64,000 nucleotides of DNA from Alphaproteobacteria bacterium. GTDB lineage: Bacteria > Pseudomonadota > Alphaproteobacteria > RF32 > CAG-239. Below, piece by piece: positions 23,894 through 27,730 of this stretch. A model generated the notes under the pieces. The model made no database searches and was not told the DNA's origin. It saw only the letters and a list, made by a program, of their open reading frames with translations. The stretch is from NCBI GenBank assembly GCA_045116295.1, contig JBGULQ010000008.1, positions 13,147 to 77,146 on the forward strand. The letters run 5' to 3'. The position numbers were made by a program, and so were the translations under genes. The stretch's first letter is position 1; each line of letters begins with the position of its first letter.

Positions 23894-26800
23894 TTATCGA
23901 TTGTTTTCATCGCGACGAGAAATCAGCATATTGTCGACTTGAGATTTTTGTTTTTGTGACTGCGGAGTGGTTGCTCTAAAAGTTACCGAAACTACTTTTG
24001 AGCCATCACTCATGGTGTGATCAACACCATTTTCTTCATATTGAACTAATCCGCGCTCAGCCATAATTTTCAGGTATTTTAATGTAGTTTCATCACGCAT
24101 TTCTGCGCTCCATTCTCCGCCATCTTTATGTATTACGCTGATCATCTCAGCAAATAATTTGCGTGATGAGGCGTTCTTGTCTTTTCGATATTCGGGAAGA
24201 ACAGCCATATCATAAATTGATTTTTCTTCTTTATTGTATAGACAGTATCCGACAACCCCTTTTTCGCGATCTTCAATAACAAATCCGGACATATTCTCAG
24301 GCGCTTGAAGCTGTTTATCACTGTCAGGAAATACCGCATATGAAATCTTGTCCATAGCATCTATATCCAGAAAACATACATCACGAATATAACGTTGGGT
24401 TTCTTGTGTTTTGTCAAGAGGTAAGGCATTGGGGTTTTCTGCTAACAAAACTTGTAAACGCGCATCAGAATAACCTTCACCGTATAATTTTGGCAGCGAT
24501 ATTGTATCTGTTTGTTTATAACCTGTCACATCAGCATCTTGAGAACCCAAACCTATCGTTACTTTATGGCAATTTTGTTCTTGAGTCAGGTACCGTCCGA
24601 CTTGTTCATAGATTTTGTTGATTTCTGGACGATTTTTAAGCTCTCCCAAAGCCTCAATATTATCAAAACAAACCTCGCGATATTTGCCTTCGGTGTTTTC
24701 CCATGTCCATGAGCCGGCAACAATTTCTCCTTTGTCATTTTCAACTACAAACAACTGCGAAAACGGATGTTTTACTGTTGAAACAGCACAAGGATGTCCT
24801 ACTTCTCCAAAATGTTGACAACAGTCAGTATAATCTCCAAAAAATCCGGTTCTGGGGTCTTCTCGTGGCAAAAATCTTCCTGTATATTTGCCTTCTTTAA
24901 ATTCTTTTTTGCTGTCAAACGGTTCAGGTACTTTTAATCCGGCCAGATAAATATCCTCATAATTATGATATTGAGATTCAGGGGTACCATGTTTTGCAGC
25001 CTCTATTGCAAACTTATCATTACGCTGATCTTTATATTTTATGCTTATGCAAACTGAAAGAACATCATTATATTTGAGTTTTGATATTGCAGAATTATCG
25101 TCTTGATTTTGCAATTTGTTTTCCAAAGCTTGCCAGTTTTTAGCAATAATTGACAGCTCGTTCAAAGGGCGATGAACTGTCTGGTATTCTGCATTTTGAT
25201 AAAGAATGTTTTTTTGAATGAATTGCAAAAATCGAGCGTTCGCTTCCGGGTTCATCGGTTCGGGTAACCAATATACAGCATCGTGAATAGATAATTTATC
25301 CTCTGGATTTTTCTCATTGTGATTTTGAATGAGTTTTATATATGATGGAAAATATTCCTTAAATATTGCTGCTCCCTTGAAACTTGCAGGAATAAGCCAA
25401 GCAAGATTACTTTTCATGTAATCTTTAACGCTCAATGGTGCATCTGCTCTGCGGAAACTTGATGCATCTTCTTTACTAATGCCATTTTCTTGTGCTGATG
25501 TTGAAAATAATACGTTCATGACACGTTGTTGAGCCCTAAAAATCATCGAATTCGCCAGTGTTTCTTTATCAAAATGGTCTAAGGCATATTCAAATTCTTC
25601 ATCGGTGGAAAAACGCCCCTTATGAGCCACTCGCAGATCTTGTTCTGTTTCCGGATATTTTGCAATTGTTTCTTCTAAAGGTAAATGTCTCATACAGGCC
25701 TTTAAGATATGTATTTTACTTGCATTTGCAGCATTTCTAATTCTTCTTATTTCATCTGGCACTCTTCTAAAGCTTTTTCTATTTGCATTATGATCTGGTT
25801 GAACGGTATTTATTGCAATAGAAAGAACTTGTTTGGCTAATTCTGGCTTTATTTTAACGAGCTCTGACAGACAGTAGTACGCAACTTTAAATGAACTGTC
25901 ATCATTCTCACCTGATTGAAGAGCGATGTTATATGTTGCAAAAACTTGCTCGGCCAATTCAGGTCGTGCCTCAACAATCTTTGATAAATTCAAGTACGCT
26001 TGCTCCAGTATATAGCCATCATTTTTATCTGATTGAAGAGCGGTATTAAAGGTTGCAAAAACTTGCTCAGCCAATTCAGGTCGTGCCCTAACAATCTCTG
26101 ATAAATCATTGTGCGCGTATTTTAATGAATCTTTGTTATTATTATCTGATTGAAGAGCGATGTTATATGTTACAAAAACTTGCTCAGTCAATTCAGGTCG
26201 TGCCTTGACAATATCTGATAAATGCCGGTACGCGTATGCTAATGCTACCCAATTATTCTTATCTGATTGAAGAGCGGTATTAAATGTTGCAAAAACTTGC
26301 TCGGCTAGTTCAGGTCGTGCTTTAACAATTTCTGACAGATGTTTGTACGCATCCACTAACGAATAGCCATCATTTTGATCTGATTGAACGGCGGTACCAA
26401 ATGTTACAAAAACTTGCTCAGTCAATTCAGGTCGAACTTTAACAATCTCTGATAAATGCTGGTACGCGTATTTTAATGAAAGGCCATCATTCTTATCTGA
26501 TTGAAGAGCGGTATTAAAGGTTGCATAAACTTGCTCAGCCAATTCAGGTCGAACTTTAACAATCTCTGATAAATACTGGTACGCAACTTTAAATGAAAGG
26601 CCATCATTCTTATCTGGTTGAAGAGTGGTATTATATGTTGCAAAAACTTGCTCAGCCAATTCAGGTCGTGCCTCAACAATCTTTGCTAAATGCTGGTACA
26701 CGTATCCCAATGAATCGCCATTATTCTTATCTGATTGAAGAGTGGTTTTTACAGTTGCAAAAACTTGCTCGGATAATTCAGGTCGTGCCTTAACAATCTT

Positions 26801-27730
26801 TGATAAACACAAGTACACACCATGTAATGAATCGCCATCATTCTTATCTGATTGAAGAGTGTTTTTTACAGTTGCAAAAACTTGCTCAGCCAATTCAGGT
26901 TGTGCCTTAACAATCTCTGACAGGTAGTAGTACGCGTATCTTAATGAATCGCCATCATTTTTATCTGATTGAAGAGCGGTATTAAAGGTTGCAAAAACTT
27001 GCTCAGCCAATTCAAGTCGTGCCTTAACAATCTCTGATAAATCATTGTACGCGTATTTTAATGAATCTTTGTTATTATTATCTGATTGAAGAGTGGTTTT
27101 TACAGTTGCAAAAACTTGCTCAGTCAATTCAGGTTGTGTCCTAACAATCTCTGACAGGTAGTAGTACGCGTATTTTAATGAATATTTGTTATTGTTATCT
27201 GATTGAAGTGCTGTATTAAAGGTTGCAAAAACTTGCTCAGCCAATTCAGGTCGTGCCTTAACAATCTCTGATAAACACAAGTACAAATCACGCAATGAAT
27301 CGCCATCATTCTCATCTGATTGAAGAGCTGTATTAAAGGTTGCAAAAACTTGCTCAGCCAATTCAGGTTGCACCTTAATGATCTCTAATAAATCATAGTA
27401 CACTTCATGTAATGAATCCTCATCATTCTTATCTGATTGAAGCACTGTATTAAAGGTTGCAAAAACTTGCTCAGCCAATTCAGGTTGCGCCTTAATAACC
27501 TCCGATAAATCATTGTACGCGTATTTTAATGAATCGCTATTATTCTTATCTGATTGAAGAGCGGTATTAAAGGTTGCAAAAACTTGCTCAGCCAATTCAG
27601 GTCGTGCCTCAACAATCTCTGACAAATCACTATATGTACCCTCTAATAGGTAAGCATCTGACAATATTTCACCATTTTCTACTTTATTTTTTAGATCACT
27701 TAATGACTGCAATGCCTGTTCTTTATCCAT
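23894..27730 (-). CDS. giant repeat protein: 16 tandem 39-aa alpha-helical (HEAT/ARM-like) repeats, an unknown central region and a C-terminal GNAT-like acetyltransferase domain
   Basis: I prefer the ATG at 27730 (GAAGGA RBS) over the GTG at 27775. The repeat consensus is ARPELAEQVFATFNTALQSDKNDGDSLKYAYxxLSEIVK. The C-terminus GVVGYCLYNKEEKSIYDMAVLPEYRKDKNASSRKLFAEMISVI..MAERGL is GNAT-like. Confidence 0.8.
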   Translation of the reverse strand: MDKEQALQSLSDLKNKVENGEILSDAYLLEGTYSDLSEIVEARPELAEQVFATFNTALQSDKNNSDSLKYAYNDLSEVIKAQPELAEQVFATFNTVLQSDKNDEDSLHEVYYDLLEIIKVQPELAEQVFATFNTALQSDENDGDSLRDLYLCLSEIVKARPELAEQVFATFNTALQSDNNNKYSLKYAYYYLSEIVRTQPELTEQVFATVKTTLQSDNNNKDSLKYAYNDLSEIVKARLELAEQVFATFNTALQSDKNDGDSLRYAYYYLSEIVKAQPELAEQVFATVKNTLQSDKNDGDSLHGVYLCLSKIVKARPELSEQVFATVKTTLQSDKNNGDSLGYVYQHLAKIVEARPELAEQVFATYNTTLQPDKNDGLSFKVAYQYLSEIVKVRPELAEQVYATFNTALQSDKNDGLSLKYAYQHLSEIVKVRPELTEQVFVTFGTAVQSDQNDGYSLVDAYKHLSEIVKARPELAEQVFATFNTALQSDKNNWVALAYAYRHLSDIVKARPELTEQVFVTYNIALQSDNNNKDSLKYAHNDLSEIVRARPELAEQVFATFNTALQSDKNDGYILEQAYLNLSKIVEARPELAEQVFATYNIALQSGENDDSSFKVAYYCLSELVKIKPELAKQVLSIAINTVQPDHNANRKSFRRVPDEIRRIRNAANASKIHILKACMRHLPLEETIAKYPETEQDLRVAHKGRFSTDEEFEYALDHFDKETLANSMIFRAQQRVMNVLFSTSAQENGISKEDASSFRRADAPLSVKDYMKSNLAWLIPASFKGAAIFKEYFPSYIKLIQNHNEKNPEDKLSIHDAVYWLPEPMNPEANARFLQFIQKNILYQNAEYQTVHRPLNELSIIAKNWQALENKLQNQDDNSAISKLKYNDVLSVCISIKYKDQRNDKFAIEAAKHGTPESQYHNYEDIYLAGLKVPEPFDSKKEFKEGKYTGRFLPREDPRTGFFGDYTDCCQHFGEVGHPCAVSTVKHPFSQLFVVENDKGEIVAGSWTWENTEGKYREVCFDNIEALGELKNRPEINKIYEQVGRYLTQEQNCHKVTIGLGSQDADVTGYKQTDTISLPKLYGEGYSDARLQVLLAENPNALPLDKTQETQRYIRDVCFLDIDAMDKISYAVFPDSDKQLQAPENMSGFVIEDREKGVVGYCLYNKEEKSIYDMAVLPEYRKDKNASSRKLFAEMISVIHKDGGEWSAEMRDETTLKYLKIMAERGLVQYEENGVDHTMSDGSKVVSVTFRATTPQSQKQKSQVDNMLISRRDENNR
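25736..27664 (-). repeat. in-frame tandem array of a 117-bp unit (16 copies plus a partial leading copy) inside the giant ORF
   Basis: The string gcaaaaacttgctcagccaattcaggtcgtgcc recurs every 117 nt. I counted the copies from the protein sequence. Confidence 0.9.

Follow-up and report, generated by a model that had tools for sequence, protein, structure and literature searches.

What could a protein be for that joins sixteen nearly uniform helical repeats to an acyltransferase-like fold? The question is raised by a gene in a 64,000-nucleotide stretch of alphaproteobacterial DNA (contig JBGULQ010000008.1; the whole stretch is called the window in the following), where positions 23894–27730 of the minus strand encode a protein of 1,278 amino acids. 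An earlier note on this DNA had described it as a repeat solenoid followed by a centre of no recognizable motif and a C-terminal GNAT acetyltransferase, and had likened it to translocated effectors of intracellular bacteria. We followed this up by repeat analysis, structure prediction and homology searches. What is new here is a GNAT-fold module with a signature that is absent from the libraries searched, joined to a homogenised solenoid. In the architecture taken alone, that is a solenoid, a helical domain and two predicted GNAT lobes, we are highly confident. As for its function, our preferred reading, to which we give a probability of roughly 0.4, is that the whole chain is a 'conflict' effector or toxin cassette of the exported type, in which the solenoid would guide an acyltransferase dependent on acyl-coenzyme A (acyl-CoA) and which has no Sec signal.

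Architecture of the 1,278-residue protein

The coding sequence and the parts of the protein to which we refer below are the following.

23894..27730, minus strand: complete coding sequence, 1,278 amino acids plus stop codon, ATG start at 27730
27608..27730, minus strand: N-terminal cap, residues 1–41, half a repeat unit, helix B-like (...YSDLSEIVE)
25853..27607, minus strand: 15 full 39-residue helix-loop-helix repeats, HEAT-like, residues 42–626
25736..25852, minus strand: 16th repeat, residues 627–665, its second half degenerate and running into the helical domain
24932..25759, minus strand: conserved domain predicted to be all-helical, residues 658–933, including HDAVYWLP at 816–823
24407..24919, minus strand: central divergent lobe of predicted GNAT fold (CCQ domain), residues 938–1108
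24812..24829, minus strand: TDCCQH motif, residues 968–973, in the predicted alpha1-alpha2 loop; Cys-Cys-Gln invariant in 31 of 31 diverse members
24653..24667, minus strand: FDNIE motif, residues 1022–1026, on the predicted strand beta4; Phe, Asp and Glu invariant
23966..24394, minus strand: C-terminal lobe of predicted GNAT fold, residues 1113–1255
24164–24196, minus strand: motif-A-like PEYRKDKNASS, residues 1179–1189, within the C-terminal lobe
23897..23965, minus strand: basic polar C-terminal tail, residues 1256–1278, last residue Arg

At the level of sequence the N-terminal half consists of 16 HEAT-like units of 39 amino acids and is a predicted alpha-solenoid, just as the earlier note had it. 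Tandem Repeats Finder reports a single array at 25875–27629 with a period of 117 nt, 15.0 copies, 80% matches, no indels and a score of 1950, and the protein contains 16 'PEL' anchors spaced by exactly 39 residues, the unit consensus being ARPELAEQVFATFNTALQSDKNDGDSLxYAYxxLSEIVK. HEAT-like repeats are tandem units of about 37–47 residues with two antiparallel helices that build a superhelix; the period found here is exactly 39 residues over 16 units, and the hydrophobic periodicity of the array fits two helices per unit. Among the Pfam families INTS1_R4 matches with 89 bits and nine matched stretches, and INTS7_N and others match as well. These HEAT/ARM solenoids from eukaryotic families likewise have a helix-loop-helix period of 39 residues, and the matches appear to reflect repeat likeness and not orthology; homologues of the window protein were already annotated with the HEAT-like families Adaptin_N, FANCI_HD2 and Ecm29. 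Compared to typical HEAT proteins, however, the array shows much less variation between units: their nucleotide identity is about 80%, indels are missing and most of the differences fall on six positions.

The variation was analyzed by comparing the 15 full units pairwise and codon by codon. Several codons, among them Glu4, Glu7, Gln8, Val9, Gln18 and Asn22, are the same in all 15 units; unit positions 24, 25, 28, 29, 32 and 33 differ in 70–86% of the unit pairs, nearly all of these differences being amino-acid-changing and at most 3% synonymous. Two of the six positions directly precede 'SL', two directly follow it and two directly follow 'AY', which places them in the predicted loop and, on the second helix, on the face formed by i, i+1, i+4 and i+5, presumably exposed at the surface. 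They also vary in the 39-residue arrays of homologues, and the number of units and even a clear periodicity differ among close relatives with C-terminal halves that are 74–80% identical. Since the non-synonymous differences between units sit almost all at six positions and the rest is nearly uniform, the array fits one that was homogenised or recently expanded and that may carry a unit-specific ligand-binding face. A query of five units for other proteins with this array, in which 8,000 candidates were scored, gave at least five short fragments, and at least one of these (P0219, with a locus tag adjoining P0069) is the split N-terminus of a family member.

The C-terminal half was modelled with AlphaFold. 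The alignment-based model starting at residue 644 (644–1278) has a mean predicted local distance difference test (pLDDT) value of 89.7 and a predicted template modelling (pTM) score of 0.80, and Foldseek matches it in the PDB to Coxiella CBU0801, RimI, SpeG and NatA/E subunits with a probability of 1.0 and E values from 2.9e-5. It also aligns over 270–388 columns with the two-lobed GNATs VipF, MAB_4324 from M. abscessus, 2hv2 and 3n7z. A second model of residues 644–1108, which lacks the C-terminal lobe (pLDDT 91.1, pTM 0.76), still matches GNATs, namely the ribosomal-protein-S5 acetyltransferase 3igr, NatD, SpeG, Gcn5 and GNA1 (probability 1.0, E values of 3e-3 to 2e-2), and therefore the assignment of the central lobe does not depend on the C-terminal one. 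Target-normalised template modelling (TM) scores are 0.65–0.67 for the C-terminal lobe to CBU0801 and RimI and 0.50–0.63 for the central lobe of the shorter model to GNATs. The predicted order in the central lobe, a beta hairpin, two helices, three strands, a long helix, a strand and a final strand, is that of the GNAT topology. By their modelled fold both lobes belong to the GNAT superfamily, and the enzyme half is a helical domain plus a tandem GNAT. The AlphaFold and Foldseek analysis proposed in the earlier note has thus found a GNAT fold in both the central and the C-terminal domain: the GNAT predicted at the C-terminus is confirmed by fold (probability 1.0, E 2.9e-5) and stays below threshold at the sequence level, and the 'unknown' centre (about residues 680–1090) is indeed unrecognized by sequence but can now be described as a conserved helical domain and a divergent GNAT lobe. 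The helical domain (658–933) itself has no PDB match by Foldseek, the top 50 matches listed being GNATs or other unrelated enzymes. An internal duplication relating the two lobes was considered but is unsupported; hhalign brings the beta2-beta3 hairpins into register with a probability of only 1.2%.

By sequence the central lobe has no match in Pfam, NCBIfam, PHROG or PADLOC models or among PDB sequences. Six diverse members gave no match in PADLOC-DB 2.0 (5,027 models), and all matches of a CCQ-lobe profile to PDB sequences have E>2. The PDB sequence searches with the C-terminal half, the family profile and the CCQ-lobe profile returned chance matches only (PA0618 tail protein, an aminotransferase, T-cell receptor alpha chains and ATP synthase alpha), and a match to Leu/Phe-tRNA protein transferase in one Clostridia relative is not significant (E 0.095). 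As far as sequence searches can tell, the protein is in no curated family, and an exact-sequence look-up of its 1,278 residues gave no record.

Conserved residues and relation to known acetyltransferases

When 52 members of the family are aligned, the columns that never or hardly ever vary are concentrated in the central lobe and in the final helices of the helical domain. An alignment of 31 very diverse members, with 22–62% identity to the window protein and taken from Obscuribacterales, Cyanobacteria, Clostridia, Bacteroidota, Micavibrio, Rickettsiales and others, leaves Gly965, Cys970, Cys971, Gln972, Phe1022, Asp1023 and Glu1026 invariant and Asp958, Thr968, Trp1010 and Gly1060 nearly so. 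The resulting signature of the central lobe is T[DN]CCQ ... W.W ... FD[NS]xE, with Cys-Cys-Gln in the alpha1-alpha2 loop and FDNIE on beta4 of the model. In the GNAT fold the alpha1-alpha2 loop and beta4 line the active site. What the models show is a rigid C-terminal body in whose central lobe the canonical active-site positions are predicted to be held by invariant polar and Cys residues. A Cys/His cluster, DYTDCCQHFGEVGHPC, had been pointed out before in this region; it is present in the window protein, but across the family only its Cys-Cys-Gln is invariant, and His973, Cys981 and Cys1021 are not universal in the 31 members. A metal or Fe-S site built from Cys970, Cys971, His973, Cys981 and Cys1021 was for this reason rejected as a family feature.

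In the C-terminal lobe hhalign places IYDMAVLPEYRKDKNASSRKLF on the segment beta4-motif A-alpha3 of RimI (E 1.4e-3). Motif A was defined as the pyrophosphate loop Q/R-x-x-G-x-G/A after beta4, and compared to Q-R-Q-G-L-G in RimI the lobe has R-K-D-K-N-A-S-S, with an insertion of two residues and no Gly. By eye, AEMRD and LKYLKIMAERGL resemble the catalytic LEVRASN and ALYESLGF of RimI, which would give the lobe E-x-R on beta5 and a Tyr in a motif-B-like helix.

The closest comparison for the whole enzyme half are proteins with two successive GNAT lobes, such as the Legionella Dot/Icm effector VipF (Lpg0103/Lha0223; PDB 6WQB, 7WX5), MshD and MAB_4324c. For VipF and MAB_4324, Foldseek aligns 314–388 columns of the model with a probability of 1.0, and VipF and MshD also share with the window protein a C-terminal lobe that is the more canonical one and the lack of a signal peptide. 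However, the identity to VipF and MAB_4324 is only 10–13% and the root mean square deviation over both lobes is 18–21 Å, showing that the lobes are arranged differently. In contrast to the VipF type, the window protein has a helical domain of 276 residues and the 16-unit solenoid in front of the lobes, its N-terminal lobe is the more conserved one and it has no Dot/Icm context. We know of no CCQ/FDxxE signature in VipF, MshD or MAB_4324c. The protein would accordingly act in the manner of VipF and similar tandem-GNAT effectors, yet it does not belong to the VipF family. The best single-lobe matches are RimI, 3igr, NatD and CBU0801, with target-normalised TM scores of 0.65–0.67 for the C-terminal and 0.50–0.56 for the central lobe; unlike these single-domain acetyltransferases, the C-terminal lobe scores below the Pfam cut-offs and has a glycine-free P-loop that is two residues longer, and both lobes are embedded in a protein of 1,278 residues.

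Family, repeat partners and proposed role

A search with residues 644–1278 found 91 homologues, most of them from rumen, colon and human-gut genome bins named 'Alphaproteobacteria bacterium'. None of the 91 carries a functional name. Among 1.84 billion proteins a profile of the C-terminal half matches 2,736, 1,468 and 332 representative clusters at E≤1e-3, 1e-10 and 1e-30, respectively; the weakest of these matches may be due to parts of the profile that are generic to GNATs or repeats. In species genomes, a motif-anchored scan gave 66 loci, which belong to gut Alphaproteobacteria, Rickettsiales, Micavibrio, Obscuribacterales, Gastranaerophilales, Cyanobacteria, Trueperaceae, Armatimonadota, Chloroflexota, Clostridia, Bacilli and Bacteroidota. 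In the best 150 relatives the module is almost always C-terminal in proteins of up to 3,004 residues and internal in one of 7,556 residues.

What precedes the module changes from branch to branch. It is joined to the HEAT-like 39-mers in the gut alphaproteobacterial branch, to BspA-type LRR_5 repeats in members from Clostridia and Gastranaerophilales, to another type of LRR in P0091 (such labels are our own handles for individual homologues) and to pentapeptide repeats in P0151. An ankyrin partner in L065 is below threshold (17.7 bits vs a cut-off of 27.3), and no ankyrin match was found in the Micavibrio protein L068. Judged from these fusions, the N-terminal partners are apparently interchangeable repeat scaffolds. 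In two Bacteroidota members, L060 4528–6870 (Pseudarcicella hirudinis) and L062 1481–3523, a tail with a double CxxC zinc ribbon, CEYCDAEVHPDCEICPVCNENIAEWV, replaces the second GNAT; the L060 copy lies between a putative terminase small subunit and a putative tyrosine-recombinase integrase, both recognized by eye, and may sit in an integrated element.

The 7,556-residue relative, P0182, carries a CCQ plus GNAT cassette at 4512–5042. Pfam searches, which covered three segments of it, also found a PP2C phosphatase and an FHA domain, both above the Pfam thresholds, and a segment that resembles anthrax lethal factor below threshold (E 7.9e-5, 22.9 bits vs a cut-off of 27.4). A repeated linker, SAPPEVASEKSLPGRSN..., stands on both sides of the cassette. 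Its two copies of about 45 residues, at about 3445–3490 and about 5085–5130 around the CCQ/GNAT segment, are nearly identical (SAPPEVASEKSLPGRSNS...IELHNF.SGAE.SAS.HSTP) and resemble the inter-effector processing sites of multi-effector toxins. The cassette with PP2C, FHA and a repeated linker is reminiscent of MARTX-like polyproteins and of effectors combining repeats with an enzyme, but the window protein has no RTX repeats, autoprocessing protease, recognizable trafficking domain or immunity gene. It also differs from polymorphic toxins, as it contains no RHS, PAAR, LXG or CdiA-type domain, its downstream gene is convergent and none of its neighbours is conserved at 83 homologue loci. One relative has a single RHS-repeat match of 43.9 bits (cut-off 22 bits).

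The genomic contexts of the family are not conserved. In tblastn searches, none of ten neighbours from the window was found beside a homologue at the 83 loci, and this absent synteny ruled out a toxin-immunity pair or a conserved operon. The three homologue contexts that were examined are unrelated housekeeping surroundings, two of them with a resolvase within 0.3–7 kb. These serine-recombinase (resolvase) genes, L001 7140–7763 and L002 18092–18706, lie 0.3 kb and 7 kb from the homologues and are a hint of local mobility. Homologues also occur in the Microcystis phages MaMV-DC and MaMV-DH01 (31% identity, ORF68L, annotated as hypothetical), a 'Bacteriophage sp.' protein in BFVD matches with E 2.4e-16, and 11 of 2.9 million IMG/VR contigs contain a match; plasmid carriage was not seen, with no tblastn match in 72,556 plasmids. 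Weak BFVD Foldseek matches to the helical plus CCQ part include PcfJ-like (PF14284) phage models (E 2e-3 to 5e-2). A kinship to PcfJ was rejected, as the TM scores are 0.08–0.28, hhalign against PcfJ of pCF10 gives a probability of 0.2% and no member matches PF14284.

The chain has no hydrophobic or membrane segment and, as the earlier note had said, no signal peptide: the top 19-residue Kyte-Doolittle mean of the 1,278 residues is 0.84 and the N-terminus is hydrophilic. A signal peptide is likewise missing in every family member inspected. The tails after the last GNAT strand were compared in 72 members; they are polar, on average 35 residues long with a mean net charge of +2.8; in 34 of the 72 the last residue is Arg, and 21 of them finish with 'GR'. 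Type IV systems use C-terminal export signals, and the basic, Arg-terminal tails are suggestive of such a signal or at least compatible with it. Very often the tails end in ...GR, ...R, ...RE or ...R.AG, and a terminal Arg motif of this kind could be an export or a degradation signal.

From this we propose a model in which the variable face of the solenoid would bind a macromolecular target and the tandem-GNAT body would move an acyl group, probably acetyl, from acyl-CoA onto it. By analogy with VipF, MshD and other tandem GNATs, the CoA thioester would be held by the C-terminal lobe, since this lobe has kept beta4, a motif-A-like loop, alpha3 and a motif-B-like Y...RG. The central CCQ lobe would contribute the acceptor site or a covalent acyl-Cys relay via Cys970-Cys971, Asp1023 and Glu1026. 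The target would be in another cell or an invading element, and the basic C-terminal tail might serve as a non-Sec export signal. The swapping of scaffolds, the giant multi-enzyme relative, the patchy, mobile spread and the fast-changing repeat surface point to such a conflict or effector role. The effector-like character proposed in the earlier note is plausible in this light, with indirect support from the VipF match, the scaffold fusions, P0182, the repeat surface, the lack of synteny and the basic tails. Its setting in intracellular bacteria gained no such support: the closest relatives come from bins of mammalian-gut Alphaproteobacteria and not from known intracellular bacteria, and no secretion-system gene was recognized in the window.

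Several findings weigh against this acyltransferase effector. The lineage is not known as intracellular or predatory, no secretion-system genes were recognized by eye among the window open reading frames (ORFs) of at least 180 amino acids, and no immunity-like or chaperone-like partner gene lies near the gene. The C-terminal lobe reaches only 17.8 bits for Acetyltransf_7 (cut-off 27) and 15.6 bits for Acetyltransf_1 (cut-off 20.7), in matches of 34–44 residues, and because of these scores below the Pfam cut-offs and a glycine-free pyrophosphate loop two residues longer than that of RimI, its binding of CoA is not assured from the sequence. The central lobe has no recognizable motif A but E-A-L-G-E-L with one conserved Gly. 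In addition, conservation is higher in it than in the C-terminal lobe, whereas known tandem GNATs show the opposite, and about one third of the best 150 relatives stop right after it, without a second GNAT. In the characterised tandem GNATs, including VipF and MshD, only the C-terminal lobe is catalytic (PMC10936415). As the central lobe is the more conserved one and occurs without its C-terminal neighbour, the CCQ lobe may be where the main chemistry takes place.

This leads to the strongest rival, in which the CCQ lobe would be the real catalytic centre, a new cysteine-dependent enzyme on a GNAT scaffold, with the C-terminal GNAT as an optional accessory. Such an enzyme could, for example, transfer acyl groups by an acyl-Cys ping-pong mechanism, hydrolyse thioesters or amides, or act as a transferase with an aminoacyl or another activated donor. 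We regard it as possible, if not as the outcome to be expected; in part it is compatible with the acyltransferase effector preferred here. The invariance of Cys-Cys-Gln, Phe-Asp-x-x-Glu and Gly965 in the 31 members, with Trp1010 nearly so, would be accounted for, as would the predicted location of these residues at GNAT active-site places, the many relatives ending after the central lobe (for example P0091, P0078, L050 and L055) and the conservation of the preceding helices along with it. The missing motif A and the lack of any sequence link to solved structures (all E>2) are harder to reconcile with it, and we know of no established GNAT-fold enzyme that uses a vicinal Cys pair. A bolder version, unlikely as a whole, would see in the CCQ lobe and its helical prefix a new catalytic class on the GNAT fold, with covalent catalysis by vicinal Cys, in a widespread cassette (more than 1,000 clusters, from gut Alphaproteobacteria to Melainabacteria, Clostridia, predatory Micavibrio and cyanophages) that is plugged onto interchangeable repeat arrays, the 39-residue units being a rapidly retargetable recognition array.

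The second rival concerns the place of action. Instead of being exported, the protein might be a cytoplasmic enzyme, for example a repeat-guided protein acetyltransferase that regulates a cellular target, or it might act in a phage-host conflict as defence or counter-defence. The members inspected lack a signal peptide, no secretion genes were recognized nearby and the gene is widespread across gut Alphaproteobacteria bins, all of which would suit a cytoplasmic protein, and the homologues in the Microcystis phages, the BFVD phage protein, the 11 IMG/VR contigs and the L060 copy between phage-like ORFs would suit the phage variant. We nevertheless consider this reading unlikely: the core matches neither PADLOC (5,027 models) nor PHROG, there are no conserved partner genes and just 11 of 2.9 million viral contigs match, while ankyrin, LRR and pentapeptide partners and a giant with PP2C and FHA would be expected more in proteins directed against other cells. 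That both GNAT lobes are dead folds in a non-enzymatic scaffold or adaptor, which would only bind, is very improbable, as invariant polar and Cys residues at the predicted active-site positions across a wide phylogeny are hard to explain without chemistry and the C-terminal lobe by eye retains E-x-R on beta5 and the Tyr in its motif-B-like helix, even if neither lobe has the canonical Q/R-x-x-G-x-G/A and non-catalytic GNAT lobes do occur in tandem GNATs (PMC10936415).

If the preferred reading of an exported, solenoid-guided acyltransferase is correct, a large and phylogenetically broad family, for which there is currently neither a Pfam, NCBIfam or PHROG model nor a solved structure, would gain a GNAT fold assignment, a diagnostic motif and candidate catalytic residues. 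Poorly known gut Alphaproteobacteria, represented mainly by rumen, colon and human-gut bins, would then carry a lineage-wide, fast-evolving effector-like enzyme, which would imply an unrecognized interaction with host cells, protists or other bacteria. The array would be a natural solenoid that is uniform save for one face and could be useful for finding the ligand and as a scaffold in protein design. Should the Cys-Cys pair be catalytic, this would to our knowledge be an unusual mechanism for the GNAT fold.

The gene and the rest of the window

Two elements flank the coding sequence.

27766..27794, minus strand: promoter-like site TTGACT-17 nt-TAAAAT with a TG extension, a consensus match only
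23843..23876, no strand assigned: two-way intrinsic-terminator-like hairpin, stem 23848–23869, with an A-tract and a T-tract at opposite sides

The frame in the ORF list extends from 23894 to 27775 on the minus strand and starts at a GTG; the ATG at 27730 gives 1,278 residues. As a putative ribosome-binding site, AGAAGGA, lies just 5' of this ATG and the promoter-like site (27794–27766, minus strand) overlaps the alternative GTG, the ATG is the likelier start. The terminator hairpin, located past the TAA stop, has an 11-bp G+C-rich stem (–16.1 kcal/mol, z –2.2) and is common to the gene and to the convergent gene 23466–23825. With this shared terminator and convergent gene on one side and a divergent neighbour (27936–29276) on the other, the gene looks monocistronic and its own transcription unit, in agreement with what had been proposed from the sequence. 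It is present as a single copy within the window, and its G+C content of 37.0% compares to 38.7% for the window.

The window otherwise carries ordinary housekeeping genes. A two-piece (permuted) alphaproteobacterial transfer-messenger RNA (tmRNA) at 19963–20310 (plus strand), with the tag peptide ANDNELAPVALAA, is located directly 5' of an SspB-like gene (20336–20776), and as it is of the two-piece alpha type it confirms the class Alphaproteobacteria for the organism. The ORF 20965–21846 (minus strand, 293 amino acids) has an archaemetzincin-like Cys pattern (HCDCPGCAM ... CPEC) with 'HTMGH' at the place of HExxH; it may be a divergent or inactive metzincin and has no PHROG match. Closer to the repeat gene, the ORFs 22864–23466 (200 amino acids) and 23466–23825 (119 amino acids), both on the plus strand, have signal-peptide-like N-termini, overlap by one base and end at the shared terminator.

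A prophage-like block occupies 57161–63939 (minus strand) and runs past the window end. It encodes a major head protein (62385–63368; phrog_9953, E 2e-102), a tail protein (61069–61776), a protein matching a PHROG family annotated as amidase (59541–61088) and virion or tail-fibre proteins (57161–59109). A lone tail-collar fibre gene lies at 47187–48005 (minus strand), and a tRNA-Lys(CTT) gene at 51608–51684 is found between it and the block. The G+C content dips at 16001–18000 (0.296) and at 48001–50000 (0.319) compared to the window mean of 0.387, and both regions may be horizontally acquired islands; the first overlaps the 3' part of a glycosyltransferase-like gene of 738 amino acids (15269–17485) and the second adjoins the tail-fibre gene.

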